Program-made: the position numbers and the translations under genes | Origin: Gammaproteobacteria bacterium | GTDB taxonomy: Bacteria > Pseudomonadota > Gammaproteobacteria > JAADJB01 | Assembly: GCA_013151035.1 (NCBI GenBank) | Contig: JAADJB010000053.1 | Coordinates: forward strand, 5,939 to 69,938 | Direction: 5' to 3' | Length of the DNA stretch: 64,000 nucleotides | Shown here: in pieces, positions 25,948 to 63,492 of the stretch | Numbering within the stretch: the first letter of the stretch is position 1 | Layout: every line of letters begins with the position of its first letter | Notes under the pieces: model-generated | Told to the model about the DNA's origin: nothing | Seen by the model: only the letters and a program-made list of their open reading frames with translations | Database searches by the model: none

Positions 25948-26014
25948 GGGGACAGACCCCAATTAAAAGGGCGGTGCTTTATAAGCACCACCCCTTTAAT
26001 TGGGGTCTGTCCCC
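25948..26014. repeat. GGGGACAGAC-family palindromic hairpin element, copy 1
   Basis: ggggacagaccccaattaaaaggg-cggtgctttataagcacca-cccctttaattggggtctgtcccc. Lies between the divergent murJ and rpsT. Confidence 0.75.
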
Positions 26015-26090
26015 TAAAAACAATTGACAAACAGACCAAAAAAACGCATAGTACGCCGTCTTTACAGAATCAATTATAGGAGTTCGACCC

Positions 26091-26357
26091 TTGGCCAACT
26101 CAGCACAAGCAAAGAAACGTGCCCGCCAGGCAGAAAATAATCGTCAACGTAACGTGAGCCAGCGCTCCGCTATGCGTACTACGATTAAAAAGATGCTTGC
26201 CAGCATTGATGCCGGTGATGCCGCTCAGGCACAGGCAGAATACAGGACTGTTACGTCAGTTATTGATGCAGCCGCAAGCAAAGGGCTGATTCACAAGAAC
26301 AAGGCCGCCCGTCATAAGAGCCGCTTGAACCTGAAGGTTAAGGCTCTCGCCTCTTAA
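26091..26357 (+). CDS. rpsT: 30S ribosomal protein S20
   Basis: [21 protein letters not shown]...[18 protein letters not shown] start preceded by AGGAG. Confidence 0.95.
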
Positions 26358-26362
26358 AAAAC

Positions 26363-26430
26363 CGGGGACAGACCCCAATTAAAAAGGGGTGCTTTATGAG
26401 CACCCCTTTTTAATTGGGGTCTGTCCCCGG
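26363..26430. terminator. GGGGACAGAC-family palindromic hairpin element, copy 2; bidirectional terminator between rpsT and phoU
   Basis: Perfect 30-bp stem (ggggacagaccccaattaaaaaggggtgct / agcacccctttttaattggggtctgtcccc) with loop ttatg, followed by TTTT. Confidence 0.8.
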
Positions 26431-26432
26431 TT

Positions 26433-27146
26433 TTACCCATCAAACTCTTCCTGGATCTGCTCCAGGCTGGTGTGACGCACATCCTTACCCATCACCAGAT
26501 AGATCACATATTCACAGATATTCTTAGCATGATCTCCCATGCGCTCCATCGCGCGTGCTGACCACATAATATCCAGGGTACGTTTGATATTACGTGGATC
26601 TTCCATCATATAGGTAATCATCTGGCGCATAATGAGATCATATTCGGTATCCACCTTCTCATCCTCGTGCGCAACAGCCAGTGCTGCCTCGGCATCCATT
26701 CGAGCAAAGGCATCCAATGCCTTATGAAACATACTCACCACCTGTTCACCCAAGTGTCTTAATTCGCTGAACTGCCCCTTGGGACGCTCCATACCCGCCA
26801 GGTGGATCGCCATCTTGCTCACTTTTCCCGCTTGATCACCAATACGCTCCAGATCGGTAATGGTCTTGATCACCGCAATCAACAGGCGTAGATCACTGGC
26901 GGCAGGTTGACGACGAGCCAGGATCATCACCGACTCCTCATCAATCGCGACCTCCAGTGCATTCACCTCATGGTCTCTTTCTATCACGCATTCAGCCAAA
27001 TCAATATCGGCATTCACCAGCGCCTCAATCGAGTTCTTAATCTGCTCCTCAACCAGCCCACCCATGATCAAAACCTTATTACGGATATCCTCCAGCTCCT
27101 CATTAAACTGGCGCGAGATATGATGACTAATCGTTGACTTATCCAT
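26433..27146 (-). CDS. phoU: phosphate signalling complex protein PhoU
   Basis: 237 aa with two PhoU repeats (EDxxxxD motifs); last gene of the pst operon. Confidence 0.9.
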   Translation of the reverse strand: MDKSTISHHISRQFNEELEDIRNKVLIMGGLVEEQIKNSIEALVNADIDLAECVIERDHEVNALEVAIDEESVMILARRQPAASDLRLLIAVIKTITDLERIGDQAGKVSKMAIHLAGMERPKGQFSELRHLGEQVVSMFHKALDAFARMDAEAALAVAHEDEKVDTEYDLIMRQMITYMMEDPRNIKRTLDIMWSARAMERMGDHAKNICEYVIYLVMGKDVRHTSLEQIQEEFDG

Positions 27147-27163
27147 AGTATTAACCTTCTTTA

Positions 27164-28000
27164 TTAACCGTAACGACCGGTAATATAATCTTCTGTCTGT
27201 TTCTTGCCCGGATTGGTAAACAGAGTGCTGGTATCACCAAACTCAATCAGCTCCCCCATATACATAAAGGCGGTGTAATCGGAGACACGCGCTGCCTGCT
27301 GCATATTATGCGTCACAATAACAATCGTGTATTTATCCTTCAACTCATAAATCAGCTCTTCGATCTTGAGAGTCGAGATTGGATCCAATGCCGATGCTGG
27401 CTCATCCAGCAATAATACCTCCGGTTCAATCGCTATCGCCCGAGCAATCACTAAACGCTGCTGTTGACCACCGGACAAACCCAGAGCACTATCCTCTAAT
27501 CGATCTTTCACCTCATCCCACAGTGCTGCACTACGCAGAGACTTCTCAACCACCTCAGTGATCAAACGCCTGTCATTGATACCCTGTAGGCGTAAACCAT
27601 AGGCCACATTTTCATAAATCGACTTAGGGAATGGATTAGGCTTTTGAAACACCATACCCACACGGCGACGTAGATCTGCCACATTAACCGACCTGTCATA
27701 AATATTACTGCCATCAAGCAGTATTTCACCCTCAATACGTGCAATATCAACCAGATCATTCATCCGGTTCATGCAACGCAACAGAGTTGATTTACCACAA
27801 CCACTGGGACCAATATAGGCCGTTACCCGCCGCCTGGGAATCAGCATATCAATATGATGCAACGCCTGTTTTTCACCATAAAACAGGTTTAAATCCTTTA
27901 CCTGCAAACAGACATCCTCCCGTTCCATACTCAAGGGAACACTGGGCTGCACCAGTTTTTTGATATCAATCGAATGTGTTTTTACATTTTCTTTGTTCAT
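27164..28000 (-). CDS. pstB: phosphate ABC transporter ATP-binding protein PstB
   Basis: Walker [10 protein letters not shown], the ABC signature LSGGQQQRL and Walker B LLLDEP. The start is probably the MNKEN Met. Confidence 0.9.
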
Positions 28001-28004
28001 GGTT

Positions 28005-29708
28005 TTAATTTTCCAACGCCCGATACTTCTCACGCAAATGATTACGAATACCAATTGCCGCTATATTCAATGCAATAATTACGATCACCAATAATAATGC
28101 CGTAGCATAAACCAGTGGTCTTGCTGCCTCTACATTGGGACTTTGGAAACCCACATCATAGATATGAAAACCCATGTGCATAAATTTTCTATCCAAGTGT
28201 AGAAATGGCATATTGCCATCCAGAGGCAAGGTTGGTGCCAGTTTAACCACACCCACCAGCATTAATGGAGCAACCTCACCCGCCGCTCTGGCAATCGCCA
28301 TAATCATACCCGTCATAATCGCAGGGCTTGCCATCGGCAATACCGTCCGCCACAAGGTCTCCGCCTTGGTGGCACCCAATGCCAGACTACCTTCACGAAT
28401 AGATTTAGGGATGCGTGATAAACCCTCTTCAGTCGCCACAATGACCACCGGTACAGTCAACAAAGCCAAGGTCAACGAAGCCCACATCAAACCCGGCGTA
28501 CCAAAGGTCGGAGCTGGCAGAGCCTCTGGATAAAATAATTGATCAATATTCCCACCGAGAAAATAAACGAAGAAACCAAGACCAAATACACCATATACAA
28601 TCGAAGGCACACCTGCCAAATTATTAACCGCAATACGGATCAATCGAATCATCGGCCCTTGGCTAGCATACTCGCGCAGATAAACCGCAGCCACCACACC
28701 AAAGGGAACCACAATAATCGACATGATAATAACCATCATCACAGTGCCAAATATAGCGGGGAAGATACCCCCCTCAGTATTCGCCTCACGCGGATCCTCA
28801 CTCACAAATTCATACAACTTGGCGATATAAAACAGTGATTTATCCAGCACACTCATATCATTAGGTTGATAAACCTTAACAATTTTAGCCAATGGCCACT
28901 CGATTTCCTGACCACCCGCCACCACCACGGTAATACTGTCTCGACGAATCTGATTATAGAGTTGCTCCAGTGCAACTTGCATTTTATTGTATTGGGCATC
29001 CAGTTGCGCACGTTGCTGTTTGATTAACTGTTTTGCAGACAAATCCAGTTGCCCCTTCAACTCCAGACTGCGAGTATGCAGACGCAGTTTCTCAATATCA
29101 TAATTAACCGCACCAATCTCTCCCCGTTCGATATCCTGTATCTGCTGAAACAGATCATCCGTACGTTGTAGATGTTGTTGTAACACTGCCCAGGCCTGAT
29201 TGCCTTCGGCAACCACCTCACCGGCCTGTTTAACATTGACCAGTTCACCGTAAAGATTGCCCCATTCCCTACGTTCAACTGTCATCAAGGAAGAAGGTAT
29301 CTGTTGTTTAACAATATCCGGTACCACTACCCAGCGAAAGTCCTGCCCTGTCAGATCACGATTACCCATTTTCAACAGAAAACGTTCAACGTCCTGATCA
29401 CCCTCAACAGAGTAACCGGCATCACGCAGACGTTCAGCAGAGACTCGTTCTCTATCGTGTATCTCGCCTTGTAACACAATCATTTCACCTGATTGACTAC
29501 GATAATCCAGTTTCACAATATCACTCGGCCAGAAGTGCCCCAAACCTCGCGCGGCAATCAACAACAACAGACCAAAAACCAGAATCATGCTAATACTAAC
29601 AGCAGAAGCTGCCATCCATACCCAGGGATCACCCGATCTAAACCATTGACGTATCATATCGTTATACTCACAGTGAACTGTACTTTGAACGCAAGCGCTG
29701 GCGAACAA
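28005..29708 (-). CDS. pstA: phosphate ABC transporter permease PstA (long form with large extra-membrane insert)
   Basis: The C-terminal half carries the EAA-loop permease domain. An insert of about 280 aa follows the first TM segment, as in Pseudomonas-type PstA. Confidence 0.85.
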
Positions 29709-31917
29709 TCTCAGCCAGGGTATTCACCACAAAGGTAAAGCCAAATAATACCAGTGCTGCCAGGAACAACACACGATAATGGGTACTATCCACCTCAGCC
29801 TCCGGCATCTCTACAGCAATATTAGCTGATAAGGTACGCATTCCCTGGAACACACTGAAATCCATTACCGGGGTATTACCTGTTGCCATTAACACAATCA
29901 TAGTCTCGCCCACAGCACGCCCCATGCCAATCATCACCGCAGAAAAGATACCCGGACTGGCTGTCAGTATCACCACCCGCACCAATGTCTGCCAGGAAGT
30001 GGCACCCAAAGCAAGAGAACCATTGGTCAAGTGTCTTGGAACACTGAATACTGCATCTTCGGTAATAGTAAAGATTGTTGGTATGACCGCAAAGCCCATA
30101 GCAATACCCACCACCAGTGAATTACGCTGATCAAAGCCAACACCAAATTCAGTATCCATCCAGGCACGCATATTATTATCAAATAGGAGGTGTTCGATAC
30201 TCCCTGACAGGGCGATAGAAAGCCAGCCTAAAAAAAGCACCACCGGAATCAGAATAGCGGCATCCCAACCCTCAGGAATACGGTTGCGAATAACCGGCAG
30301 GAAATGACTCCAGACAAAAGAGAACAACAACACACCCAATGGAACAATAATCAACAGACTAAAGATGCCGGGTAGATTAGCTTCAATTAACGGAGCCAAC
30401 CATAAACCAGCAAGAAAACCCAAAATAACCGTTGGTAGTGCCTCCATAGTCTCAATACTGGGCTTTACCAGACCACGCATACGCGGTGCCATAAAATAGG
30501 CCGTATAAATAGCACCCATAATCGCCAGTGGTACGGCAATTAACATGGCATAAAAGGCCGCCTTGAGAGTACCAAAAACCAGCGGTGTCAAACTGAGCTT
30601 AGGTTCAAAGTCATTACTCGCCGAGGATGACTGCCAGGCATAGACCGGCTCAGTATAACTCTCATACCAAACCTTCTCCCATAGACCCGACCAGGATATT
30701 TCGGGATGCTCATTAACAATATATTGAAAACGCATACGACCCATTGCATCTTCCATTAATATGGCATTAGCACGAGGACTTATTGTCAAATAATTAAAAT
30801 TGGCGCGCGGTAATTCTTCCAGCAAGATGGTGCGTTCAGATGTCGTATGGTAAACACCTAATACACCTCTTTTGTCCAATGCCAGAAAACCCTTGCGATT
30901 ATATTCAGGAACCAGAGCAACAATCTCTACCTGTTGGGAATGAAAAGAACGAATGCGTTGCAGTTTCTCATCACCCTGCTGATCTCTAACTGCAAACCAC
31001 TGACTAATACGACCATCATCCTCAGCAATCAACAAAGAGATATCACCCGCCAAAAAGCGGATATCACTAACACGAGTCCCTGTGGTCAATACATTGACAT
31101 GTTGCATTAACCCAGGTGATTCCTTATCACTGATATCAAAACGAGAAATCTCTCCAGACACGCTCAACACGTACAAGTTTTGCTGGTCTTTATCCATTAA
31201 CAAGGTTTGAATATCAATACCATCAACAACGATTTCAACCTGGGTCCGTTCAAAGATAAGCTCATCCCCAAACAGAGATTCTTCCTTGATATAACTGGTT
31301 AGTAGCAGACGACCATCATTAGTCTGAGCAACAATTGTTGCCTCTTCTTCCCCATTCTGGAAGGCCAAGCGAATAATAGCCACTCCATCCTCATCGATCA
31401 CCAGAGGTTTCTCACCAAAAGGATAAGTTATCTCAGGAGTAATCAGGCGCACATCATCAGGATAACTCACCCGATAAACCGGTTTAATCAGCGTGACATT
31501 ACCATCATCCAGGCCAAACAACATCTGCGCATCAACCGGATCGCTATGAGTAAAACTACTCACCAATACCTGTTCCGGAAGATCCAAACGCCTCTTACTG
31601 AGCAGTTTTCCATCCTTGGTACTAAAAAAAAACAATCCGGCATCAGCCGTCACCCGTAAGGCAATCTCAGACTGTTCTTCCATACTCAGCGATAGGGTTT
31701 TTGATGTATCACCCACCCGATCATATTCCCGATCACCGTAAAAAGAAGCCGGTTCAAACAGAGGAATAACAACATACAGCAGATAAAACAGGATCAAGAC
31801 GATAGCAAAAATAACCGTCATGCCCCCTAAACCCACACAATACCTAGCCAATACATCCTTGGCATAGCGCCAACGGTAGCGGTTGCTCATATTACTTATG
31901 GAGGACAAGTTACTCAT
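29668..31917 (-). CDS. pstC: phosphate ABC transporter permease PstC (long form)
   Basis: 749 aa. A large N-terminal extra-membrane region is followed by a 6-TM permease core, as in Pseudomonas PstC. Confidence 0.85.
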   Translation of the reverse strand: MSNLSSISNMSNRYRWRYAKDVLARYCVGLGGMTVIFAIVLILFYLLYVVIPLFEPASFYGDREYDRVGDTSKTLSLSMEEQSEIALRVTADAGLFFFSTKDGKLLSKRRLDLPEQVLVSSFTHSDPVDAQMLFGLDDGNVTLIKPVYRVSYPDDVRLITPEITYPFGEKPLVIDEDGVAIIRLAFQNGEEEATIVAQTNDGRLLLTSYIKEESLFGDELIFERTQVEIVVDGIDIQTLLMDKDQQNLYVLSVSGEISRFDISDKESPGLMQHVNVLTTGTRVSDIRFLAGDISLLIAEDDGRISQWFAVRDQQGDEKLQRIRSFHSQQVEIVALVPEYNRKGFLALDKRGVLGVYHTTSERTILLEELPRANFNYLTISPRANAILMEDAMGRMRFQYIVNEHPEISWSGLWEKVWYESYTEPVYAWQSSSASNDFEPKLSLTPLVFGTLKAAFYAMLIAVPLAIMGAIYTAYFMAPRMRGLVKPSIETMEALPTVILGFLAGLWLAPLIEANLPGIFSLLIIVPLGVLLFSFVWSHFLPVIRNRIPEGWDAAILIPVVLFLGWLSIALSGSIEHLLFDNNMRAWMDTEFGVGFDQRNSLVVGIAMGFAVIPTIFTITEDAVFSVPRHLTNGSLALGATSWQTLVRVVILTASPGIFSAVMIGMGRAVGETMIVLMATGNTPVMDFSVFQGMRTLSANIAVEMPEAEVDSTHYRVLFLAALVLFGFTFVVNTLAEIVRQRLRSKYSSL

Positions 31918-31993
31918 TATGGGATCATACTATGGCTATATGACAGTTTTGTGACACACTACATTAAAAAGGAACAGACTTCTACCCAAAAAA

Positions 31994-32018
31994 GGGGACA
32001 GACTTTAAGTCTGTCCCC
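31994..32018. repeat. GGGGACAGAC-family hairpin, copy 3 (short form), in the pstS-pstC intergenic region
   Basis: ggggacagac-tttaa-gtctgtcccc, a 10-bp stem. Positioned like the pstS-pstC mRNA stem-loop of other bacteria. Confidence 0.7.
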
Positions 32019-32088
32019 AGCCATTCTCATTATATGTGGTGCGCAATGCACACCCTACCTGGTAGGCTGCGTACCACGCACCAATAAA

Positions 32089-33063
32089 CTATTTAAGGCT
32101 ATGCAGAACCTTCTCTGCCACCTTGGCTGGCAGTGGAATATAGCCATCCTTAATAACGATCTGCTGACCCACTTTGGATAAAACCAGCTTGATAAACTCA
32201 CGTTCTAATGGAGGCAGTGGACGATTCGGGTGCTTATTCACATAAACATACAGATAGCGAGACAAAGGATACTTGTTTTTAAGGGCATTCTCAGGTGTGG
32301 CTGCAACAAACTCCTGACCGGGTTTCTTTGCCAGAGGGACTGCGCGCACACCCGATGTCTTATAACCAATACCAGAATAACCGATACCGTTTAATGAGGA
32401 TGAAACCGACTGTACCACAGAGGCAGAACCCGGTTGTTCATTCACCGTATTCTTGTAATCACCCTTACATAATGCCTTCTTCTTGAAATAGCCATAGGTA
32501 CCTGACACCGAATTACGACCATATAGTTGAATAGTACGGTTACTCCAACTACCCGTTAGGCCCAGATCACCCCATTTTTTAATATCGCTCTTGCTCTTAC
32601 ACTTGCGAGTTGAAGAGAATACTGCATCAACATCAGGAATCGTCATGCCCTTAATGGGGTTGTCCTTATGTACATAAACTGCCAGCGCATCAATGGCTAC
32701 TGGAATTGCAGTCGGCTTATAGCCATAACGACTCTCAAACGACTGTATCTCCTTGCTCTTCATCTTGCGACTCATTGGCCCTATATTCGAGGTACCCTCA
32801 GTCAGTGCAGGAGGGGCAGTAGAAGAACCCGCTGCCTGAATCTGAATATTTACATTTGGATACTCACGCTTAAATTGCTCAGCCCATAATGTCATCAGAT
32901 TAGCCAGGGTATCAGAACCCACACTGGACAGATTACCAGCGACACCACTGGAGCGGTGATAATCAGTCAGCGCAGGGTCAACCTGCTGTGTAGCCATGAC
33001 CTGTGATGACAATAAAAGACCGGCACACAAGGCCGCTAATGATGGTAATTTAATCTTCTTCAT
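32089..33063 (-). CDS. pstS: phosphate-binding periplasmic protein PstS
   Basis: 324 aa with a signal peptide, and PBP-family motifs (SGVAG..., GSSTA...). Confidence 0.9.
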
Positions 33064-33166: not shown

Positions 33167-33169
33167 CCC

Positions 33170-42645: not shown

Positions 42646-44853
42646 ATGAAACGCTATAACCACTTGTTATTATTTTGTATTTTATTGTCTGCAGAAACTT
42701 TAGCAGCAGCGGGGGACAACGGAGCAGGGATAGATCTCTGGCAAATATCCGGTAGTAATACTTTACGCTATGATTATTACAATAACTCTGGTGACATTGC
42801 GGCATCACCCTATCGTTTCAGTAATACACAGATTTACGATGAGTTTAATCTCAATTTCAAGCGGCAACTATCACCCTATAACCGGCTACAAGGCAATGTC
42901 AGTGGCTTATTTAATGATTCATTATATCGCAGCCGTTTTCAGGGTGGCAGTATAGAACGCTTCAGCTTGAAACAGGAAAATGGAGCAGTTAATCTGCCGT
43001 ACCGTGCCGAAGTCGGTGACTTATTTGCCTTTCAGAGTTTTCGTACCATCCAGCGTACTCTGAAGGGCGCACAGATTGAACTGCAACCTGATTTGGCTAC
43101 CGATACCCAACACTCTATCATAGTCTTTACCGGTAGTGCCTCAGCAGATTGGCGTGATATCAAATCTACGGATGGCTGGAGCAGTGGTATTTCCTGGTTA
43201 GCACAAGGTTCTGCCTGGGGCAAGCTTGCGGCCAATTTTCTCAACAATTACAAGAGCACAAATGCAACAACATTAACCGCTTCAACACAGCAGACGATAT
43301 ATAGCCTTGCCTACGAAAATCAGCCGCAGTGGTTTGGTCAAGCACTGACGCTTGAAGGAGAAGCGGGTTATTTTAATGGTGATCATGCTGACATTGCTGG
43401 TGTGGGTAGCGGCAAAGACAAGCAAGGCAGTGCGCTGTTCGCACAAATATCAGGCCGCCCTACTACATTGCCTGCACTGAATTACCGTCTTCGTTACGAA
43501 TCCTACGATCAGGATTATCGTCCTGATACCGCCTCGATTCAGCCAGACCGTCTCTCCAGAGAGGGTCATTTGTCCTGGCGTTTTAACAATGGCCTAACAT
43601 TACGCGGCCGACGGCAAAATTTTTATAGCAACAAGGGTACCGTCAACCCGCTGACAACCGATGTCTATGGCCTTAATCTTAGCGGGCCATTTTCAATTGG
43701 AAACGTATCCCCCCTGTCAGGCAATATTGATGCCTTCAAACAAACAGCAGAGAGTCGTAACCGTGCCACGATTACCGATACCCGAGTGGTCAATATAAAT
43801 GTCAGTCAAAGCCTGAGTCGGGATATTTCTATTCGCGGCGGATTTTTTTATTCGAATATCAATAACAAAGCTATTCCACAAAACCTCTCCATTACGCGAC
43901 AATATCTAACCGGTCTCAATTTCAAGGCTCAATGGCGGGGTTTCTCCGGCACTATATCTCCAGCATTTGTAATAAGGAGGTTGGATAACTCAGGCAAACG
44001 CACTAGCTGGGAGCGCAATCCCACCTTGAGCCTCAATGCCAGTCGTGGCCCACATACACTCTCATTTTCTCACGCGGTGCTGAGTCAGGGAGGAGCAGCC
44101 GCAGGCTTGGGGCAGTTAACTCGGACTAGTGGGATGAATTATCGCTATACACAAAAAAGCTATACTTTTGGGCTCGAAGGTAACTGGTATCAACGCAACC
44201 CCGATAGTCCCCTTAGCCGTAACACGGATGCCTGGCGTATTGGTGCTTACTGGACGTTAAACTTTGATAAACCAGTAAAGCAGGTCATCGCGGGGTCGTT
44301 AGCTGCGTCATCATCAGGAATGCGGGCTGTCGCACCATCATCACGACTAGCGCTTGATCTCACAAGACTGACACCAGGGATGATGGAAGGAGAGGCACGT
44401 AAGATCGCAATAAATAGTGATTTGGGTAAACCGACAAAACAACCGGGGCTATTGGTCTGGTTTAACCGCATTTTCCGTGATCTGGATCAAAGCCAACGAT
44501 TGGTCATACAACTGTTAAATAGTGAGCTCGCGCGTTCAGCGATTATTATTGATTTTGATGACGTGGGTGACAGTCAAAGTGTTGAACAAACCTTTGAACG
44601 AGTACGCCAGCAATTATTGTTGCGCTATGGTACTCCTGACTCATTTTTCGAGCAGGGAGATTTTACTGCGAACATAGCACTGGAATTATCTTCCGAGCGT
44701 TTTTATCGTAGCATGCAATGGGAAATAGCAGATGGTGTACTGCGCTTTGGCATACCACGTAGGCTGGATGGACAAGTACGGATGGAAATACAGTTTGCAC
44801 GTGAATTCCCGACTATTAAAGAGTCTCTATGGAGTCTGGAGGAATTACAATGA
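42646..44853 (+). CDS. exported hypothetical protein, probable outer-membrane beta-barrel with about 190-aa C-terminal extension
   Basis: Signal peptide MKRYNHLLLFCILLSAETLAAA. Long run of alternating amphipathic beta-strand-like segments rich in Y/R/N/G, with an internal OMP-like terminal-strand signature (RIGAYWTLNF) near residue 545, followed by a further non-barrel-like domain. Confidence 0.5.
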   Translation: MKRYNHLLLFCILLSAETLAAAGDNGAGIDLWQISGSNTLRYDYYNNSGDIAASPYRFSNTQIYDEFNLNFKRQLSPYNRLQGNVSGLFNDSLYRSRFQGGSIERFSLKQENGAVNLPYRAEVGDLFAFQSFRTIQRTLKGAQIELQPDLATDTQHSIIVFTGSASADWRDIKSTDGWSSGISWLAQGSAWGKLAANFLNNYKSTNATTLTASTQQTIYSLAYENQPQWFGQALTLEGEAGYFNGDHADIAGVGSGKDKQGSALFAQISGRPTTLPALNYRLRYESYDQDYRPDTASIQPDRLSREGHLSWRFNNGLTLRGRRQNFYSNKGTVNPLTTDVYGLNLSGPFSIGNVSPLSGNIDAFKQTAESRNRATITDTRVVNINVSQSLSRDISIRGGFFYSNINNKAIPQNLSITRQYLTGLNFKAQWRGFSGTISPAFVIRRLDNSGKRTSWERNPTLSLNASRGPHTLSFSHAVLSQGGAAAGLGQLTRTSGMNYRYTQKSYTFGLEGNWYQRNPDSPLSRNTDAWRIGAYWTLNFDKPVKQVIAGSLAASSSGMRAVAPSSRLALDLTRLTPGMMEGEARKIAINSDLGKPTKQPGLLVWFNRIFRDLDQSQRLVIQLLNSELARSAIIIDFDDVGDSQSVEQTFERVRQQLLLRYGTPDSFFEQGDFTANIALELSSERFYRSMQWEIADGVLRFGIPRRLDGQVRMEIQFAREFPTIKESLWSLEELQ

Positions 44854-47800
44854 ACGGGCGATTATCTGTAAATAAATGCGCGCAGCAGGTATTGATTGCG
44901 ATACTATTGTTACTGACCATCTCGATCGCTTTTATCGGCACTAGTATAGTTCAAGCTGCTGATTTCGCTGATGCGCCAGACTCTGACCTAAATAAGTGTC
45001 GCAAGTATTATCAGCCTAGCTGTGAATATCATTACCCTACTCTGGAAGTCAATAATGGTGCTCGTCATTTGAATACCCGTGCGGCATGGCTTGGCAACTC
45101 TGTTTCAGATGAAACAGCACCCAAATCAAGTGATGACGACGATTTTCTATCGACCCAGAAGATTTACAATGCCACATGGAATGGATCACTTTATATCAAT
45201 GTGCTGATTGATCACAACAGTGATGGCGACTGGGACGATCCCGGTGAATGGGTTGTTCAGAACAATAGCTATGACATTCCTAAGGGAAAATCACAAAGCA
45301 TCGGCATCGCTGGTCCGCCGCCGGGTAAGTGGTACCGAATCACCTTAACCGGAAGACCCGTAACCGCCTATACAGGCAAAGGCATTTTTTCAATTGGGGA
45401 AACCGAAGATTACTTGATTGGCGCCCAAAAGAAAAAGGGGGGGGAGAAGGACTCACTTCCGTTTCCACCACTGGAATTTTGTGGGGATGGCATTATCAAC
45501 CTTCCCGGTGAACAGTGTGATCCGCCCGGTGGCGGTTGTCCGGCTGGTCTGGCCTGCAACATAAACTGCCTGTGTGACGGTGAAGAGGGACTACCGCCTA
45601 TACCTGGTGCTTCTCCAGGTTCATCTTCTCCAGGCCTATCTTCTCCAGGCTCGGTTTCTCCAGATTCACTATTAGCACCTCAAAAACTGAAAGGACTAGA
45701 CCGTATCACTACCGGAAGCGGTCGGTGTCGATTACCTTGGCAAGGTGGCACAACCCCATGCGATGAGTGCATAAAAGGTCATGCGGGACAGAATTATGCC
45801 AAAGTATGTTATCAGCATGAGAATGAAATTGAAAAAAACCGTTTGCATGCTGAGGAACAGACGATAAAAATAAACCTACTCTATAATGCATACAATCATG
45901 AAAAAAATCGTTTAAAAAATAAAAACAGCGATCCTCTCAAGGGGATTGAATTACGAAACATCTATAAGAAATGGGCTAAAGAGAAACCATCTTACGATAG
46001 AAAGATTAAGGCATGGAAAAAAACCAAGGAGAATTGGAAGCAAGTAAAACCTGCTGTCATTGAAGACTCATTGGAAATGGCTCTCAAAAAATGCAAGGAT
46101 GAAGGGATTTGCGGCAACAGCAGTAAACAAGTTAAAACTGAAGAGCCTCTGCAAGAAGATGAACGCTGTACATCTCTGATCAAGCCCAAGACCTTTAAAA
46201 ACAACCTTGCACTGTTAAACGAAGCCAATCGAAATAACCTGGGAGCAGGAAAAGCAAGTAAGGTCTTAATGAATGGAATGATTGCGAAGGCAATGAATCC
46301 ATATTCTATTATTCTAGATGCAAAAAAGATTGGCAGCCGGTCACTAACTGCTGAATTTGATTCACCTGGGAAAAAAATAAAAACAAGTATCACCAAAATC
46401 AATGATTGTGATTCAGTTGTTTCCACAGGAATACGAAAAAAACATTATGAGTTTACTCTCATTATTGAAAAGTATGAAATTGATAAAACAATTAGTTTCT
46501 TTAATCCAACTGAAGCAATTATTAACATAGCTGATCTTGCTTCAGCAGCTACATCTATTCCCATACAATTAACCTGGATCAGCATAAATGGAGCTATGAA
46601 TGCTATTGATAAAGAATGGGCTGCGGGTGGATTTGAAGTCCTGGATTTTGCGTTTACAGCAGGGGGAGCTTTAGTTAAGGGAAGCCGTGCTGTTGCCGAA
46701 GGTGGAAAAGCTGTTGGTCATATTGGTTTGAAAACAATTAAGAAAGGATCTAAAACGGTAGTTAAATCGACTATCAAACAAAGGTTAAAAAGTGAATTAT
46801 CTTCAAGTGCCACTGATATTTTAACGCCAAAGGGTACGGGTAATAAAGAAAATGTTAATAACAAATCAATGTATATTGATCAGGTTAAATCTGATATAAA
46901 ATCCCGGCTTGATAAAAATCCACTGATCAATACCGTAAAGGCGGAAAAGCAGAGCATTTTGGGGCGGCTTAAACGAGGATTGCTAGGGGAACACTATATT
47001 CATCTTAAAGGAACGATAGAAATCCCTGTGGCTTATTGCATAAAGCTTAAAAACACATCTACTGAGTACAGCAGCGATATTATAACCAATTGTGAGAATA
47101 TCAAAGAACCTGTTCTGGAGGATACTATAGTAACAGGTGATGACAGCCTACCAACTGAAAGCGGTTCAAAAGACGTGAATGGCTTGAATGGTTTGTTTAA
47201 TATGCAGCGTATCAACCCGTGTCCTGCTTGTAGCAAAACTTATGCAGACTTTGCTGCTATACAGGCAAAAGCAAAACCACTAAAGGAAAAGATTATTCGC
47301 CAATTTGGTAGTGTTCGAGAGTGGCGAATAATGCTGGGGACAGCGGGTAAAATATTCGGCGGTTCTGCCGGTCAATTAAGGGAAAAAGCGATCAATTTGA
47401 AGAATGAAGTGGATTCGCTCAATAAACAATCAAACAAGACGCTTCTAAGTTTAACCCTATGCATGGGGAATTTATGTACTGGTACTAACAAAACCGCTTT
47501 AGAAGACCTGCCGATTGAAAGCGATTCAAATTGCCCTGATTGTGGAATTGAACTGGTGCAGGTTATAGCGGGTAGAGGGAATAACCCCTTGAGTCCGACA
47601 GACCCTGTTTCAGCGGGAACGACTAGTACCATTGTCGATACGCCCGCTACGGGTGGCGGCGGGGTTTCTGGCGACACGATACCGCCAGTCATTTCTGCGC
47701 CTGCCTCTATTACGGTAGCGGCAACGGATATGAATGGAATATCTGTGGCCAATGCAACCATTCAGGCTTTTCTTGCTGCGGCAACGGCGACAGATAATGT

Positions 47801-48638
47801 TGCTGTGGTAGGCTCGGTGACAAACAATGCACCACTGGTTTTTCCGGTGTTACCGAATATGCCCACAGGCAACACAACGAATGTGATTTTTTCTGCCGTC
47901 GATGCAGTAGGCAATATTGGTACCTCTACCAGTAGCGTGACTGTGGTGGATCAATCAGCACCTGGCCTGACCTTGCCAACATCAATTACCGTGACGGCAT
48001 CTTCTGGTGCTACAAGTGTTCCTGCTAGTAACGCCACTATAAGCACGTTTTTAAATGCTGCGCAAGCCCTTGATGACGTAGATGGCATGATAGCTGCACC
48101 TGCAGTGTCACCTCCAGCCAATTTCTCAGTAGGCACGACGACAGTGACCTTTAAAGCTACAGACGGCGCAGGAAATGTGCAAACAGGTACCCGTACGGTT
48201 ACCGTATTAGCATCGGCAGGATTGCCAGCGATAATAGATGGACGTTGGCAAATGACATGTGATTTGGCATTTGGTTCTGCAGCGGATGCCACTACTGTCA
48301 ATACATTGATGGGCACGCCAATGCCAAGCAATCCAATGTTGGTGATCACGGGGAACAGTAGCAATTTTGTAATAACCACTTTACCTCCAGGCGATTTTGC
48401 AGCAGGACCAGCGACAGAAAATCTTGCGACGACAGAAAATGATCTGATGCTGGGTTTTGCCAGTACCATAATATCCAGCAATGGTCATACCTTTAATGTT
48501 GGCATGGGAGAAACATGGACTTTCGATTTCCCTGTAGCGGGTCAACACGGACTACAATTATCATGGCAGATATTTACTCAAGCGCCTGACCCGATTATCA
48601 GCGTGCAGTACAATTGCAGCGGAAATAAAGCACCATGA
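44850..48638 (+). CDS. large exported surface protein: GEVED domain, Myxococcus-type Cys-rich repeat, Pro/Ser linker, Lys-rich helical region, two HYR-like repeats
   Basis: ATGA overlap with the upstream gene; N-terminal signal/anchor. DFADAPDSD...GARHL...DDDDF...IDHNSDGDWDDPGEW...WYRITL...GETEDYLIG fits the GEVED domain pattern. CGDGIINLPGEQCDPPGGGCPAGLACNINC fits the Myxococcus cysteine-rich repeat. Two ~85-aa repeats (TIPPVISAPASITVAATD... and LPTSITVTASSG...GTTTVTFKATDGAGNV) fit the HYR domain. Confidence 0.6.
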   Translation: MNGRLSVNKCAQQVLIAILLLLTISIAFIGTSIVQAADFADAPDSDLNKCRKYYQPSCEYHYPTLEVNNGARHLNTRAAWLGNSVSDETAPKSSDDDDFLSTQKIYNATWNGSLYINVLIDHNSDGDWDDPGEWVVQNNSYDIPKGKSQSIGIAGPPPGKWYRITLTGRPVTAYTGKGIFSIGETEDYLIGAQKKKGGEKDSLPFPPLEFCGDGIINLPGEQCDPPGGGCPAGLACNINCLCDGEEGLPPIPGASPGSSSPGLSSPGSVSPDSLLAPQKLKGLDRITTGSGRCRLPWQGGTTPCDECIKGHAGQNYAKVCYQHENEIEKNRLHAEEQTIKINLLYNAYNHEKNRLKNKNSDPLKGIELRNIYKKWAKEKPSYDRKIKAWKKTKENWKQVKPAVIEDSLEMALKKCKDEGICGNSSKQVKTEEPLQEDERCTSLIKPKTFKNNLALLNEANRNNLGAGKASKVLMNGMIAKAMNPYSIILDAKKIGSRSLTAEFDSPGKKIKTSITKINDCDSVVSTGIRKKHYEFTLIIEKYEIDKTISFFNPTEAIINIADLASAATSIPIQLTWISINGAMNAIDKEWAAGGFEVLDFAFTAGGALVKGSRAVAEGGKAVGHIGLKTIKKGSKTVVKSTIKQRLKSELSSSATDILTPKGTGNKENVNNKSMYIDQVKSDIKSRLDKNPLINTVKAEKQSILGRLKRGLLGEHYIHLKGTIEIPVAYCIKLKNTSTEYSSDIITNCENIKEPVLEDTIVTGDDSLPTESGSKDVNGLNGLFNMQRINPCPACSKTYADFAAIQAKAKPLKEKIIRQFGSVREWRIMLGTAGKIFGGSAGQLREKAINLKNEVDSLNKQSNKTLLSLTLCMGNLCTGTNKTALEDLPIESDSNCPDCGIELVQVIAGRGNNPLSPTDPVSAGTTSTIVDTPATGGGGVSGDTIPPVISAPASITVAATDMNGISVANATIQAFLAAATATDNVAVVGSVTNNAPLVFPVLPNMPTGNTTNVIFSAVDAVGNIGTSTSSVTVVDQSAPGLTLPTSITVTASSGATSVPASNATISTFLNAAQALDDVDGMIAAPAVSPPANFSVGTTTVTFKATDGAGNVQTGTRTVTVLASAGLPAIIDGRWQMTCDLAFGSAADATTVNTLMGTPMPSNPMLVITGNSSNFVITTLPPGDFAAGPATENLATTENDLMLGFASTIISSNGHTFNVGMGETWTFDFPVAGQHGLQLSWQIFTQAPDPIISVQYNCSGNKAP

Positions 48639-54951: not shown

Positions 54952-55004
54952 ATGGGTTATAATTATCATCATTGCTGTCCCATTAACTCAAGAGACAGGA
55001 ATTG

Positions 55005-55090
55005 CGTTTCTCTATCAGAGATCCTTGCCCGCATGGACGCGGGCGTGGAGCCTACATGGATGTATTCACGGCGTGTCTCTGGTAGAGAAA
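55005..55090. repeat. intergenic palindromic element, family B, copy 2
   Basis: cgtttctctatcagagat ... gagcctacatggatgtattcacggcgtgtctctggtagagaaacg. The core is about 90% identical to 20421-20460. 18-bp imperfect inverted-repeat arms, with an inner gcccgcatggacgcgggc hairpin. Confidence 0.75.
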
Positions 55091-55191
55091 CGTGATTCAT
55101 GTCTCGAACTTACCAGGCATTTTTTTCGATGAACATCATGCTATTACAGTAATTACATAAATTCTTAACGGAACAGCAGTGAATTATCATA

Positions 55192-58821: not shown

Positions 58822-58918
58822 TGTTTACTACCGCTGAATTTACAACATATCCGCCTATTCTACTGCAATCACCGAATAGAAGCACTCTGTATCCTCCTTC
58901 GGGCGGACGACATCAGGC

Positions 58919-60118
58919 TTATTCCATATCAGGTGTTGCGCGAATACGATGAATACTCAGATCGGCCCCTTGATGCTCTTCTTCTTCTGTCAAACGAATA
59001 CCCACCACTGCCTTGATCAGCGCATAAATCAAAAAACCACCGCCAAAGGCAATAACAATGCCCATCAGTGTACCGATTAGCTGTACCGTGAGGCTCACAC
59101 CCCCTAAACCACCCAGGGCAACCGAACCAAAGATACCCGCAGCAATTCCGCCCCAGGCACCACACAGACCATGTAACGGCCAGACTCCGAGTACATCATC
59201 AATCTTCCAGCGGTTCTGGGTCAGGGTAAAGGTCCAGACAAACAACGCACCGGCCACCAGACCGGTTACCAACGCACCCAAAGGATGCATAATATCTGAC
59301 CCCGCACACACCGCCACCAAACCCGCCAACGGGCCATTATGCACAAAACCCGGATCATTTTTACCCATAACCAATGCTGCCAGAATACCACCCACCATCG
59401 CCATCAATGAGTTAACAGCCACCAGACCACTAATACCCTCAATGGTTTGAGCCGACATCACATTAAAACCGAACCAGCCAACGGTTAGTATCCACGCTCC
59501 CAATGCCAGAAAGGGGATACTGGAAGGTGGATGAGCATACAAGGTTCCATCACTACCATAACGACCCTTGCGATGACCGAGCAGGAGTACCGCAGCAAGG
59601 GCAATCCAGCCACCCATGGCATGAACCACGACCGAACCGGCAAAGTCATGGAAAGCAAAACCAAAAGTGCTCTCCAACGCATCTTGTATACCCCAGTTAC
59701 CATTCCATACCACACCCTCAAAAAAAGGATACAACAACGCAACAATGAGGAAGGTAGCGAATAAATGCGGATTAAAACGGGCACGTTCTGCAATCCCGCC
59801 TGAAATAATAGCTGGAATTGCAGCGGCAAAGGTCAGTAAAAAGAAAAACTTGACCAACTCATAGCCATTTTTCCCCGTCATGGTCTGTGCGCCATCAAGA
59901 AAACCAACCCCATAGGCGATACCATAACCAATAAAGAAATAGGCAATCGTTGATACGGCAAAATCAGTAATGATCTTAACCAGGGCATTAACCTGATTCT
60001 TGCTACGCACAGTACCCATCTCAAGAAAGGCAAACCCTGCATGCATGGCAAGCACCATAATAGCGCCCAGCAAGATAAATAAAACATCGGTACTCGTCTG
60101 TAAATTTTCCATCAACAT
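58919..60118 (-). CDS. amt: ammonium transporter (Amt family)
   Basis: 399 aa, 11 TM segments, and the Amt signature around ...DFAGSVVVHAMGGWIALAAVLLLG... Confidence 0.9.
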   Translation of the reverse strand: MLMENLQTSTDVLFILLGAIMVLAMHAGFAFLEMGTVRSKNQVNALVKIITDFAVSTIAYFFIGYGIAYGVGFLDGAQTMTGKNGYELVKFFFLLTFAAAIPAIISGGIAERARFNPHLFATFLIVALLYPFFEGVVWNGNWGIQDALESTFGFAFHDFAGSVVVHAMGGWIALAAVLLLGHRKGRYGSDGTLYAHPPSSIPFLALGAWILTVGWFGFNVMSAQTIEGISGLVAVNSLMAMVGGILAALVMGKNDPGFVHNGPLAGLVAVCAGSDIMHPLGALVTGLVAGALFVWTFTLTQNRWKIDDVLGVWPLHGLCGAWGGIAAGIFGSVALGGLGGVSLTVQLIGTLMGIVIAFGGGFLIYALIKAVVGIRLTEEEEHQGADLSIHRIRATPDME

Positions 60119-60131
60119 AAACCTCTGAATA

Positions 60132-60593
60132 TTAGTGGCGACGTCCCTTCATCAAAGCCTGAATCAATTCATCTTCATACTGAATACGATCTGCCAACAC
60201 TTCACCCAGGCGTGATAAATCATTCGCCAGATCATCCACTCGATCGTCCAGCACCGCCACATCGTAGCGATCATTGAAGGCAAGAATAAAATCAGTTGTT
60301 TTAACGATCTCTGGATAAATCCTGTCGGCTAATGCTGCAACAGTCTGCCGACGCTCCTGATTATTCTCAATAAAACGATATAACTGAAAATGCGCACTGG
60401 CAGTGTAGTCAATCAAGGATTGGCAAAAATCCTGCAAGCTCCCTTCGGTATCTTCATCTGCAACAAACGGACGCTGTTGAGCCAGATCAGCGTACAACGC
60501 CAGGGTCTCAGCACGCGTTGCCACCAAAGTAGAATGCTTTTCTTTTAATCTGGAACGGCGATCACCGTGACCTGTTCTATTATTAACTTCCAT
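60132..60593 (-). CDS. rsd: Rsd/AlgQ-family regulator of sigma-70 (anti-sigma D)
   Basis: LQDFCQSLIDYTASAHFQLYRFI aligns with E. coli Rsd LDDFCQSLVDYLSAGHFSIYERI; length 153 aa. Confidence 0.7.
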   Translation of the reverse strand: MEVNNRTGHGDRRSRLKEKHSTLVATRAETLALYADLAQQRPFVADEDTEGSLQDFCQSLIDYTASAHFQLYRFIENNQERRQTVAALADRIYPEIVKTTDFILAFNDRYDVAVLDDRVDDLANDLSRLGEVLADRIQYEDELIQALMKGRRH

Positions 60594-60663
60594 TACTCCC
60601 CCATACCTTCAATTCAATTATTTTTTTACAGTATAACAAGCCTTGGGAACCTTGCATAAAATA

Positions 60664-60688
60664 ATACTTGACTAAATTGATCAAGTAT
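60664..60688. promoter_or_regulatory. 25-bp palindromic operator resembling the IscR (Rrf2) type-1 site
   Basis: ATACTTGACTAAATTGATCAAGTAT has perfect 8-bp arms (ATACTTGA/TCAAGTAT) and matches 23 of 25 positions of the ATASYYGACTRWWWYAGTCRRSTAT consensus as recalled. It lies in the divergent rsd / Rrf2 intergenic region. Confidence 0.5.
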
Positions 60689-60764
60689 TAAATAATACGA
60701 TCACTATTTGATCATATGCAGTATCTCAGGATACCCGCGAATGAAGAAAACCAAGGAGTATGTT

Positions 60765-61226
60765 ATGAAATTATCCACCAAAAGTCGTCACGCAATTACT
60801 GCCATGATGGAACTGGCTCTGCACAAGAAACAGGGGCCCGTCACACTTGCCGATATTTCTATGGAACAGGCTATTTCTGTCTCCTATCTGGAACAATTAT
60901 TTGCGCATTTGAGAAAAAGCCAACTGGTCACCGGTCTACGCGGCCCTGGCGGCGGTTATCGATTAAGCAAACCTGCCCATGAAATCACCATTGCAGAAAT
61001 TATTGATGCCGTGTCTGGACTGAGCAAACACAGCCCACAATATACCGCCATTGCCGTTGATGGCGACCCTATCAATCGTCTATTGTGGAAACAATTAAGT
61101 GGTCGGATCTATCATTTTCTGGATGGTATTACGCTGGCCGATGCTATTCAGGAAGAGGATGACATCGTCTCTGATGCACATATCGTAACCAATACACCTA
61201 TAAGTCCTTATAGCGCGAGAATGTAA
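60765..61226 (+). CDS. Rrf2-family transcriptional regulator lacking the Fe-S ligand cysteines
   Basis: MKLSTKSRHAITAMMELAL... wHTH and GPGGGYRL motif. No Cys residues in the region where IscR/NsrR coordinate their cluster. The ORF track starts 19 codons earlier, but the conserved start is MKLSTK. Confidence 0.8.
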   Translation: MKLSTKSRHAITAMMELALHKKQGPVTLADISMEQAISVSYLEQLFAHLRKSQLVTGLRGPGGGYRLSKPAHEITIAEIIDAVSGLSKHSPQYTAIAVDGDPINRLLWKQLSGRIYHFLDGITLADAIQEEDDIVSDAHIVTNTPISPYSARM

Positions 61227-61269
61227 TTCAAGACTGAAAAGAGGATACGGGTAAACTGATCTCCAAAAT

Positions 61270-61321
61270 GGGGACAGAGCGAAAAGGGGAGCCTTTGGCT
61301 CCCCTTTTTTGCTCTGTCCCC
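61270..61321. repeat. GGGGACAGAC-family hairpin, copy 4 (variant termini GGGGACAGAGC); terminator-like after the Rrf2 gene
   Basis: ggggacagagc-gaaaa-ggggagcc-tttg-gctcccc-tttttt-gctctgtcccc. Confidence 0.7.
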
Positions 61322-61391
61322 GGGATATACGTACCCACAGACTCTACTAAATAATCTTTACAAGCACGGGGCATTCTCTCCATAATGCTTA

Positions 61392-62222
61392 ATGATCGAT
61401 ACCATTCAACAACTCTATCCACTGGCAGATAACCCGGTTCCCCTACGAGGACTTTACCTGGGGCACGCCCTGCACAAAAAAGCGACGGGGCAACAGCCTT
61501 TTATCTACGCTAACTTTATCAGCAGTCTGGATGGGCGTATCGGTCTGCAAGACCCTGATCAACAAACCCATCGTGTACCCGATGCTATTGCTAATCCGCG
61601 TGACTGGCGTTTATATCAGGAACTGGCGGCACAAGCCGACATCCTACTCACTAGCTCCCGTTATTTTCGTCAGGCCGCAACAAATACTGCTCAAGACCTG
61701 TTACCTATTGGTTCGGAGGCTGATTTTCAGGATTTAAGAGCATGGCGTTTACAACAAGGTCTACAGCCACAACCGGATATTGCTATTCTCAGTAGTCAGC
61801 TGGACATCCCGGAGATAGCACTGGAACCTTATCTTCATCGTCAAATTCATGTCTTTACCGGCAATACAGCCCCAACAGATAAAATCAATGCCCTACAGGC
61901 ATCCGGTATCACAGTACACGTTAATCCAAGCGACTCGATTGTTAACGGTCATTATCTTATTGAGCAACTAAAACAGCATAAATATCGTAGTATCTACGCC
62001 ATTTCCGGACCCCAGGTCTTATATACCCTGATCAAGGATCGGGTACTCAATCGCCTTTATCTCAGTCAGACACATCAGATCCTGGGTGGTCAGATATTTG
62101 ATACCTTTGCCTGGGGCCCCGAACTCAAGCCCCCGGTAGCCCTTACTCTCAATAGTCTCTACTATGATACCAAGGCACCTGCCGGGGCAGCACAGTGGCT
62201 CAGCACCTTTGACATAAAATAA
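61392..62222 (+). CDS. RibD C-terminal-domain / dihydrofolate-reductase-like family protein
   Basis: YANFISSLDGRIG motif typical of RibD-C/DHFR-like reductases; 276 aa. Confidence 0.55.
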   Translation: MIDTIQQLYPLADNPVPLRGLYLGHALHKKATGQQPFIYANFISSLDGRIGLQDPDQQTHRVPDAIANPRDWRLYQELAAQADILLTSSRYFRQAATNTAQDLLPIGSEADFQDLRAWRLQQGLQPQPDIAILSSQLDIPEIALEPYLHRQIHVFTGNTAPTDKINALQASGITVHVNPSDSIVNGHYLIEQLKQHKYRSIYAISGPQVLYTLIKDRVLNRLYLSQTHQILGGQIFDTFAWGPELKPPVALTLNSLYYDTKAPAGAAQWLSTFDIK

Positions 62223-62232
62223 GAGAACACGT

Positions 62233-62928
62233 ATGGATACACACCACAGCCTTGATCAACCACTCAATCACCTGGAACAAGAGGCGATACAATTTTTAAT
62301 GGAATATGGTGAGATCCGCAACTACAAGATCGATGACCTCATCGTACGTGAAGGTGAAGAATCAAATTATGTTTACATCCTGTTGAAAGGCATGGCTCAT
62401 ATCATCAAGGATGATGCCTTTAATAACAGCAATATTATTGCCAAGGCAATGCCGGGTGCCATCATCGGTGAGATGGGTGTTTTTATGGAACTGAAACGCA
62501 CTGCCAGCATTGTCGCAACAACGGAAGTCAATGCGCTGGAACTCAGCAACGAACGTTTTATGGAAGGCTTGGAGAACTACCCGGTATTGATGAATCGTCT
62601 ACTCAAGAATATGTCATCCAAGCTCAATTACATCAATCAGGTGATGGTACGCGAAAAACAATCCCGACAAATGCTTTTTATTGGCATGCTAATAATGAAA
62701 CAATTGGGTGATAATAAACAGGAGAACGCTCTGCTGGAAATGGACTTCGAGGAACCCATCAAGTCCGGCACCTTGTCGCTACTGGATCTTACCAATACCT
62801 TCATCAACTACCAAAAACTCCACATCCTGGATCAGGTACATTTCAAGGATGATAATCATATCTGTCATTTTATGGTTCACCCACTGTCACTGCAACGATT
62901 CATGGATCATGGTGCAACAGCACAATAA
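62233..62928 (+). CDS. cyclic-nucleotide-binding domain protein (CAP-effector domain, no obvious HTH)
   Basis: IIGEMGVFMELKRTASIVATTEVNALELS cNMP-binding signature; the C-terminal half is not a Crp-type HTH. Confidence 0.6.
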   Translation: MDTHHSLDQPLNHLEQEAIQFLMEYGEIRNYKIDDLIVREGEESNYVYILLKGMAHIIKDDAFNNSNIIAKAMPGAIIGEMGVFMELKRTASIVATTEVNALELSNERFMEGLENYPVLMNRLLKNMSSKLNYINQVMVREKQSRQMLFIGMLIMKQLGDNKQENALLEMDFEEPIKSGTLSLLDLTNTFINYQKLHILDQVHFKDDNHICHFMVHPLSLQRFMDHGATAQ

Positions 62929-62931
62929 GCG

Positions 62932-63417
62932 TTATTCAAGTAACACAAGCTCAACATCATCATCGGCATCAACGATATAATTGGGTAAATCATCCGGGTG
63001 TATATATTCTTCAGATATTGCCCGCCCCCTAATTGAGGCTCCCGCATCAAACACACTCTGTACCGACCCGCTCAATAACGGGTGCCACTCAGGCAGATCC
63101 TCTCCCACGGCTAACAGACGGTAAGCACAGGTCGCTGGTAACCAGTTGGCCTCCATCGCCAATTGCGGTGTCACCTGTAGACAATCCGGCACAATAACCG
63201 AGCGATCTTCATAACAGCTACAACGACAGGTCTCATGATCGAGAAAGCGACAGGCAACATTGGTAAAATAAAGATCTCCGCTATCCTCATCCTCCAGTTT
63301 ATGCAGGCAACACTGGGCACAACCATCACACAGGGATTCCCATTCTTCCGGGGTGAATTCCGTTAATTTCTTTTCTTGCCAAAAGGACTTTGTTTTTTGT
63401 TGCCCGACTAGTTTCAT
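62932..63417 (-). CDS. ycgN: YcgN-family protein (UPF0260)
   Basis: EWESLCDGCAQCCLHKLEDEDSGDLYFTNVACRFLD...WLPATCAYRLLAVGEDLPEWHPL is collinear with E. coli YcgN. Start set at MKLVGQ; the ORF track's extra 20 codons overlap the upstream hairpin. Confidence 0.8.
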   Translation of the reverse strand: MKLVGQQKTKSFWQEKKLTEFTPEEWESLCDGCAQCCLHKLEDEDSGDLYFTNVACRFLDHETCRCSCYEDRSVIVPDCLQVTPQLAMEANWLPATCAYRLLAVGEDLPEWHPLLSGSVQSVFDAGASIRGRAISEEYIHPDDLPNYIVDADDDVELVLLE

Positions 63418-63443
63418 AGGGGTATTGTAACATTCGTTTGGCT

Positions 63444-63492
63444 GGGGACAGACCTTTAGCTGGGGACAGCCCCCCAAAACGGGTCTGTCCCC
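63444..63492. repeat. GGGGACAGAC-family hairpin, copy 5
   Basis: ggggacagacc-tttagctggggacagccccccaaaac-gggtctgtcccc, between the divergent ycgN and typA. Confidence 0.65.

Follow-up and report, generated by a model that had tools for sequence, protein, structure and literature searches.

Five intergenic palindromes in a Tenderia-related gammaproteobacterium: probable REPIN-like dimers of the terminal repeats of an IS200-like transposase

What kind of element places the same palindrome at five sites between the genes of one short stretch of bacterial DNA? The question is raised by 64 kb of contig JAADJB010000053.1, from an uncultured gammaproteobacterium related to Tenderia; the whole of this stretch is referred to below as the window. 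An earlier note, made from the letters of the window, described in it five palindromes with the paired pattern GGGGACAGAS…STCTGTCCCC. They were read as repeats resembling repetitive extragenic palindromes (REPs) or bacterial interspersed mosaic elements (BIMEs), specific to this lineage and possibly mobilized by a transposase located elsewhere in the genome. The analysis reported here indicates that the five elements are likely non-autonomous dimers, similar to REPINs (REP doublets forming hairpins), of the terminal inverted repeat (TIR) of an IS200-like HUH/Y1 transposase. Such an enzyme resembles the REP-associated tyrosine transposases (RAYTs) and is of the 'TIRYT' kind, after the RAYT-like genes flanked by TIRs, called 'TIRtrons' or 'TIRYTs', that were described by Di Nocera, De Gregorio and Rocco (2013; BMC Genomics 14:522, PMC3733652). 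The repeat family thereby gains a concrete and testable origin in the TIRs of an IS200-like tyrosine transposase.

Five palindromes and their common head

The five palindromes are real and form one family. The paired pattern occurs five times in the window and not once in 100 shuffles, and all of the copies reported earlier are present at their sites with inverted ends of about 10 bp. The 10-mer GGGGACAGAC, allowing at most one mismatch, has 11 sites in the window against 2.73 +/- 1.64 expected from dinucleotide shuffles, and all 11 near-matches fall inside the five elements. Furthermore, GGGGACAG is found at both ends of every copy. When folded as single-stranded DNA (ssDNA), each of the five forms a single hairpin (-11.5 to -46.6 kcal/mol, z -4.2 to -15.4), as had been proposed. 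The perfect 30-bp stem that the earlier note saw in copy 2 proved to be longer still, with perfect arms of 36 nt when the flanks are counted. Rfam gave no match at the five elements.

The outer 10 nt, here called the head, are the sole part common to all five copies. The spacer between the two heads of a copy measures 5-47 nt, and the interiors are of four kinds. Copies 1 and 2 are near-duplicates that share the interior GGTGCTTTATRAGCACC, which implies that the unit was copied in its entirety. Copies 3, 4 and 5 share with them the 10-nt head only. A GTAG or CGTC tag is absent from the ends and flanks of the five copies, and the window contains isolated dimers only, with no alternating REP arrays of the BIME type.

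A constant 10-mer in inverted pairs, with a variable interior and at terminator-like sites, might also be a DNA-uptake signal or a binding signal for a host protein. The DNA uptake sequence (DUS) of Neisseria and the uptake signal sequence of Haemophilus tend to occur as inverted pairs in terminators, and the pairs in the window resemble DUS pairs. However, no unpaired 10-mer head was found outside the five elements anywhere in the 64 kb, coding DNA included, and the core GGGACAG outside the elements is at chance level (8 sites, against a shuffle mean of 6.8 for the whole window). Moreover, a signal of this type does not predict the link with Y1 genes described in the next section, and the chance that it accounts for the family is minimal.

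Y1 transposase genes beside the head in other genomes

A genome collection scanned with a loose form of the paired pattern gave at least 120 matches, at loci that were chosen by the motif and are hence selection-biased. Among the matches listed, most were unrelated long palindromes and terminators from many phyla. These matches alone are uninformative, because selection on any 10-mer would give such palindromes. The 20-nt arm of copies 1 and 2, GGGGACAGACCCCAATTAAA, was found in 81 metagenome contigs, against about one expected by chance as estimated from the size of the collection. When the open reading frames (ORFs) of those contigs were clustered, the top recurrent neighbour, present at 8 loci, was a single family of Y1 transposases with the HUH motif NHVHLL and the tyrosine motif YIELNPVRA. 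Pfam assigned this family to PF01797 (Y1_Tnp, IS200-like) with E values of 1e-11 to 1e-18. The best NCBIfam model was that of the REP-associated tyrosine transposase, NF047646, with scores of 50-77 bits, under its cut-off of 80. A sequence search of the transposases against solved structures in the PDB (E up to 0.01) gave no match; the E. coli RAYT, which we take to be present in the PDB, was likewise not matched by them. The associated proteins run about 90 aa past the Y1 domain, and Pfam finds no helix-turn-helix (HTH) there even at E values up to 10.

Among the motif-selected loci, whose phylum names are those of the record labels, tblastn located a protein of this same Y1 family beside the motif in Pseudomonas brassicacearum (L018), in Treponema (L070) and in L066. 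The same was found in metagenome-assembled genomes (MAGs) of Cytophagales (L105), Clostridia (L027) and Planctomycetota (L029). At least 10 motif-selected loci have the same layout, in which GGGGACAGAC… lies upstream and …GTCTGTCCCC downstream of the gene, so that the heads point outward on both sides. The full TIRtron plan is 5'-GGGGACAGACC…[gene]…GGTCTGTCCCC-3'. In some genomes the Y1 gene is itself paired: L207 carries two genes for an identical protein (10001-10693 and 15246-15938), and L209 two Y1 transposase genes (4499-5122 and 10001-10705), each gene with its own heads. Paired copies within 5-6 kb look more like an active insertion sequence (IS) than a single-copy domesticated gene.

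Because the loci searched by tblastn had been picked by the motif, a reverse test was made with seven homologous genes picked by protein similarity alone, from Methylobacillus flagellatus, Desulfobacter hydrogenophilus and two MAG contigs. GGG(G)ACAGACCAC was present about 55 nt before the start codon in all seven. An intact …TCTGTCCC(C) lay within about 20 nt past the stop codon in five; in the other two, M. flagellatus and Desulfobacter, the 3' copy is degenerate. Since Y1 genes selected in this way bear the same heads, the elements of the window can be read as the terminal repeats of such a gene without the gene. In other words, the window copies are TIRtrons minus the gene, in which both outward heads are kept and a short spacer stands in its place. 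The polarity of the window dimers equals that of the gene-flanking TIRs.

The metagenome contigs also define the anatomy of the unit. Conservation starts at AAT(A), just 5' of GGGG, and ends at position +20, and the monomer is a 24-nt REP-like hairpin, AATnGGGG-ACAGA-CCCCnATT, with the loop ACAGA. Its flanks in these contigs are AAT(A), not GTAG, and this near-invariant 5' flank could be the target or cleavage site. Across the proteobacterial classes the head is kept as GGGGACAGACC[A/C]C. Full heads often follow stuttered partial heads (…AATAGGGGAC AATAATA GGGGACAGACC…) in metagenome loci such as L125, L126, L128, L150, L177 and L180. An alternative array, with several direct copies 20-65 nt apart, was also seen in loci of this set. 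Stuttered and tandem heads of this kind suggest repeated insertion beside an existing copy.

Small, intergenic elements with inverted-repeat ends around a variable interior may also be miniature inverted-repeat transposable elements (MITEs), deletion derivatives of a DDE-transposase IS with ends starting GGGGACAGAC. Several IS and Tn3-family ends start with GGGG. However, no DDE transposase recurs beside the motif, the recurrent neighbour being a Y1/HUH enzyme. In addition, flanking direct repeats or target-site duplications were found at none of the five copies, which is as expected of an HUH enzyme and speaks against a MITE of the DDE type. Copy 3, with 25 bp and a 5-nt interior, is atypical for MITEs as well, and an origin of this sort is very improbable.

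An IS200-like tyrosine transposase is most likely the mobilizer of the family. A copy exposed as ssDNA or RNA snaps back to a hairpin with the conserved 10-bp head duplex at its foot. By analogy with E. coli TnpA(REP) and IS200/IS605, a Y1 transposase encoded elsewhere in the genome would recognize the folded head on ssDNA, and cleavage and rejoining at the outer boundary would leave no target duplication. Whole dimers could spread in this way, as in copies 1 and 2, and perhaps single heads as well, as the third head in copy 5 may indicate. We infer from the gene associations elsewhere that this genome encodes such a transposase and that the copies are mobilized by it.

Several points weigh against this origin. 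In more distant homologues from Firmicutes, with 57-62% identity to the L027 protein, the heads are GGGGACAA, GGGGACAT or GGGGACCG and not GGGGACAG. These variants mean that the strict 10-mer is not universal and that only a GGGGAC-type head is general; a universal 9-mer head across all phyla was considered and dropped, as the protein-selected Firmicutes homologues have GGGGAC-type heads only. A Y1 transposase was not found in the 64-kb window by tblastn or by a profile hidden Markov model (best E 1.8), and the copies could be relics. The same absence is consistent with the earlier idea of a transposase located elsewhere in the genome. The four interiors among five copies are unlike classical REPIN populations, which surround one master sequence. 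Finally, transposition of TIR or REPIN elements by such enzymes has never been demonstrated directly for this class (PMC3733652).

Placement of the copies and their neighbours

The coordinates of the copies and of the other features discussed are collected in Table 1. The earlier note had bounded copy 2 at 26363-26430, slightly wider than the core given here. Its assignment of the neighbouring genes agrees with Pfam for MurJ, S20, PhoU, PstC, PstS and Rrf2; Pfam additionally calls RibD_C, a cNMP-binding regulator and the CxxCxxCC protein among the neighbours. Two ORFs reach into copies 1 and 5, though only through their mechanical TTG-start extensions. The Pfam matches in these ORFs start at residues 42 and 50, and for this reason all five copies are best regarded as intergenic, as first described.

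Table 1. Elements of the palindrome family and other features (window positions, or positions in the named locus)
Feature	Coordinates	Strand	Description
Copy 1	25948-26014	.	Two inverted heads GGGGACAGACCCCAATTAAA… around a GC hairpin; divergent murJ/rpsT spacer
Copy 2	Core 26364-26428; perfect palindrome 26358-26434	.	Convergent rpsT/phoU spacer, filled by the copy
Copy 3	31994-32018	-	Minimal form GGGGACAGAC-TTTAA-GTCTGTCCCC, between pstS and pstC
Copy 4	61270-61321	.	G/C variant heads GGGGACAGAG…CTCTGTCCCC; 3' of the Rrf2 gene
Copy 5	63444-63492	.	Imperfect dimer between a 90-aa ORF and a CxxCxxCC-domain gene, upstream of the latter
Third partial head of copy 5	63462-63471		GGGGACAGCC, direct orientation
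Interiors of copies 1, 2 and 4	25968-25994; 26383-26409; 61282-61310		A-tract/GC-hairpin/T-tract units
pstS-pstC hairpin sites of relatives	L218:10985-11174; L219:10973-11154; L121:10973-11341		Sites compared
Spacer downstream of phoU in a relative	L218:16807-16892		Short tandem repeat (GAGTGCC)n before a terminator hairpin
Second repeat family	20371-20477; 54992-55105		Two copies of about 107-114 bp
tRNA-Thr (CGT)	10086-10161	-	No other RNA gene of the window was called by Rfam or ARAGORN

The arms of copy 1 are 32 nt long and 94% complementary (-32.5 kcal/mol, z -11.4). Those of copy 2 match at 100% over their 36 nt, the AAAACC/GGTTTT flanks included (-46.6 kcal/mol, z -15.4). The interior of copy 2, AAAAAGGGGTGC-TTTATGA-GCACCCCTTTTT, resembles a bidirectional terminator, and its tails are GGTTTT and GGTTTTTT, with A and T tracts on the flanks. 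Copy 4 begins 44 nt past the Rrf2 stop codon (-26.1 kcal/mol, z -9.8), and its interior, AAAAGGGGAGCC-TTTG-GCTCCCCTTTTTT, is a terminator-like hairpin. Copy 5 is the weakest hairpin in z (-16 kcal/mol, z -4.2) and carries the third partial head; doubled heads like it were seen in other genomes (L027, L038, L129, L139 and L162).

The A-tract/GC-hairpin/T-tract interiors of copies 1, 2 and 4 are such that the repeat seems to carry or enclose bidirectional terminators and not random spacer DNA. On the transcribed minus strand, copy 3 forms a stem of 11 bp with TTTTTT directly after it, the top terminator-like site of its region; judged by this sequence, it looks like an intrinsic terminator or attenuator. 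The rule of a hairpin plus a T-run holds for copy 3 and does not hold for copies 1 and 5, and a terminator is plausible at copy 2 and at the inner hairpin of copy 4. The suggestion that several copies occupy terminator sites is thus borne out for some of them, such as copy 3 after pstS.

By PstS, the nearest relatives share about 82-86% identity with the window, Candidatus Tenderia electrophaga (about 82%) among them. In three relatives whose pst regions were compared, the pstS-pstC spacer holds an unrelated GC hairpin, GGCCCCGC…GCGGGGC, with a T-run. The position of the attenuator is conserved and its sequence is not, the window using the minimal palindrome and TTTTTT. On this comparison copy 3 appears to replace the ordinary pstS terminator of the relatives. 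The head motif was not found in 62 kb around the pst operons of the three relatives, which indicates that the expansion is local, though the head is widespread. The claim that the family is specific to its lineage had to be corrected on this point: the sequence is not private, as the head is shared across phyla and has already been described as a GGGGWSAS TIR, and what stands is the narrower part of the claim, the local expansion. One relative's spacer downstream of phoU contains a short tandem repeat before its terminator hairpin (Table 1).

These sites raise the question of whether the five elements are simply Rho-independent terminators or mRNA-stabilizing hairpins whose common GC-rich stem base arose through local duplication or through convergent selection and needed no transposase. 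The terminator-like quality of copy 3, the ordinary terminator at the same place in the relatives, the A and T tracts that flank copy 2 at its site between convergent genes, and the interiors of copies 1, 2 and 4 are all in line with such an origin. So is the AAAAA…TTTTT that surrounds many of the motif matches listed from unrelated genomes. However, copy 1 lies in a divergent promoter spacer and has no T-run, and no T-run follows the outer stem of copies 4 and 5. Terminator constraints do not lead one to expect an identical 10-mer in five independent hairpins, nor the same head bracketing Y1 genes in the unbiased, protein-selected sample. Terminators by themselves are an improbable explanation of the family. 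The copy in the promoter spacer, the lack of target duplications and of single heads, and the Y1 link were the grounds on which the terminator-only, DDE-type MITE and DNA-uptake readings were rejected.

With the elements read as TIR dimers of a Y1 transposase, terminator function may still be part of their biology. From their positions, some copies would serve as or replace terminators or attenuators, namely copy 3, copy 2 and the inner hairpin of copy 4. A bolder proposal, for which there is some but rather little likelihood, is that the head duplex of 10-14 bp at the hairpin foot is all that the transposase reads. Whatever separates two inverted heads would then be cargo, in this lineage bidirectional terminators (copies 1, 2 and 4) or nothing (copy 3), and the elements would be portable terminators that replace ancestral ones such as the pstS attenuator. 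If this were true, an enzyme of the TIRYT/Group-1 type, deemed poorly or not repeat-associated, would drive the spread of repeats useful to the host.

Three further features of the window stand apart from the palindromes. A second, unrelated repeat family has 30-31-nt terminal inverted repeats (GAGGCAGGGATTGCTCCTCTCTAACAGAGAC…), and both of its copies, 85% identical, lie within ACTCAA…GAACTT. Their arms show apparently compensatory changes (CTCC/GGAG versus GTTT/AAAC), and the only Rfam match, which points to a miRNA family, is sub-threshold (E 0.08; 19.8 bits, where the gathering score is 95.5). This second family has the look of a MITE or of a structured RNA. Over the whole window GC skew is negative (-0.03 to -0.21) except at 44001-48000 (+0.075), which coincides with a 1269-aa ORF on the + strand. 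The tRNA gene is listed in Table 1.

Relation to TIRtrons, REPINs and terminators

The exact motif strings do not occur in Nunvar 2010, Nunvar 2013, Di Nocera 2013 and Quentin 2018, and a string search of the literature for the motif returned eukaryotic primer sequences only. The published link was found through the degenerate consensus GGGGWSAS, which many TIRYT TIRs share; moderately abundant TIR families often occur as dimers (PMC3733652). Quentin et al. (2018) placed the TIRYTs in subclass 2.1, with the consensus GGGG[AT][CG]A[CG] and a C-terminal HTH-like extension of the Bac_DnaA_C/HTH_23/HTH_28 type (PMC6006769). The Group 1 RAYTs of Bertels et al. (2017) have the widest distribution, in Proteobacteria and Clostridia, with flanking 16-mers of low frequency, and are regarded as weakly or not REPIN-associated (PMC5581495). 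The transposases associated with the head are probably Group 1 RAYTs in that scheme, and their closest match is probably to the subclass 2.1 TnpA(REP)-like proteins, although the C-terminal HTH was not detected by Pfam. In the motif-selected Acidobacteria MAG loci no transposase was found; these loci may belong to the Acidobacteria TIRYT group of PMC3733652.

For annotation, elements of this kind explain long, perfect palindromes in the intergenic regions of MAGs, and they can mark assembly break points. The family also adds details to a thinly studied class, namely the conservation of the head, the monomer with its ACAGA loop, the polarity of the dimers and the copies that stand in for terminators.

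Compared with bidirectional intrinsic terminators, the elements have in common GC-rich hairpins at gene ends, some with A/T tracts, and copy 3 fits the hairpin and T-run pattern. In contrast to terminators, the family has a shared 10-bp foot that is linked to a transposase, and one copy in a promoter spacer.

The likeness to the REP/REPIN-RAYT system (Nunvar 2010; Bertels and Rainey 2011; Ton-Hoang 2012) is closer. In both, short palindromic units in inverted orientation form one long hairpin, are extragenic and repeated, and leave no target duplication. In both, too, a single-copy IS200-like Y1 gene is enclosed by inverted units, and the metagenome monomer is a REP-like hairpin of 24 nt. The window copies differ in having no GTAG/CGTC tag and in not clustering around one master sequence, and the scores of the associated transposases, 50-77 bits, fall short of the 80 bits set as the RAYT equivalog cut-off. 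The REP/RAYT claim of the earlier note is therefore upheld in part: the palindromes are dispersed and REP/REPIN-like, and their head brackets RAYT-like Y1 genes elsewhere, but they are not classical REP/BIME elements, which have GTAG and BIME arrays. Because of these absences and the sub-cut-off scores, 'TIR family of a TIRtron' is the more exact label.

The TIRtron/TIRYT class is matched in most respects. The window head GGGGACAG fits GGGGWSAS (W=A, S=C, A, S=G), and in other genomes a RAYT-like Y1 gene lies between such TIRs at a nearly constant spacing, the upstream one about 55 nt away and the downstream one directly behind the stop codon. Dispersed copies are arranged in dimers or small clusters (the 64-kb window has five dimers, one of which bears a third head), and moderate abundance and wide phylogenetic spread are likewise shared. 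The differences are that the window copies have only the 10-nt head in common while their interiors differ, that no cognate transposase is seen alongside them in the window, and that the Tenderia-related host lineage is not among the published examples in the part of the literature at hand. The five palindromes are an ordinary new family within the published TIRYT/TIR class, and not a new system.

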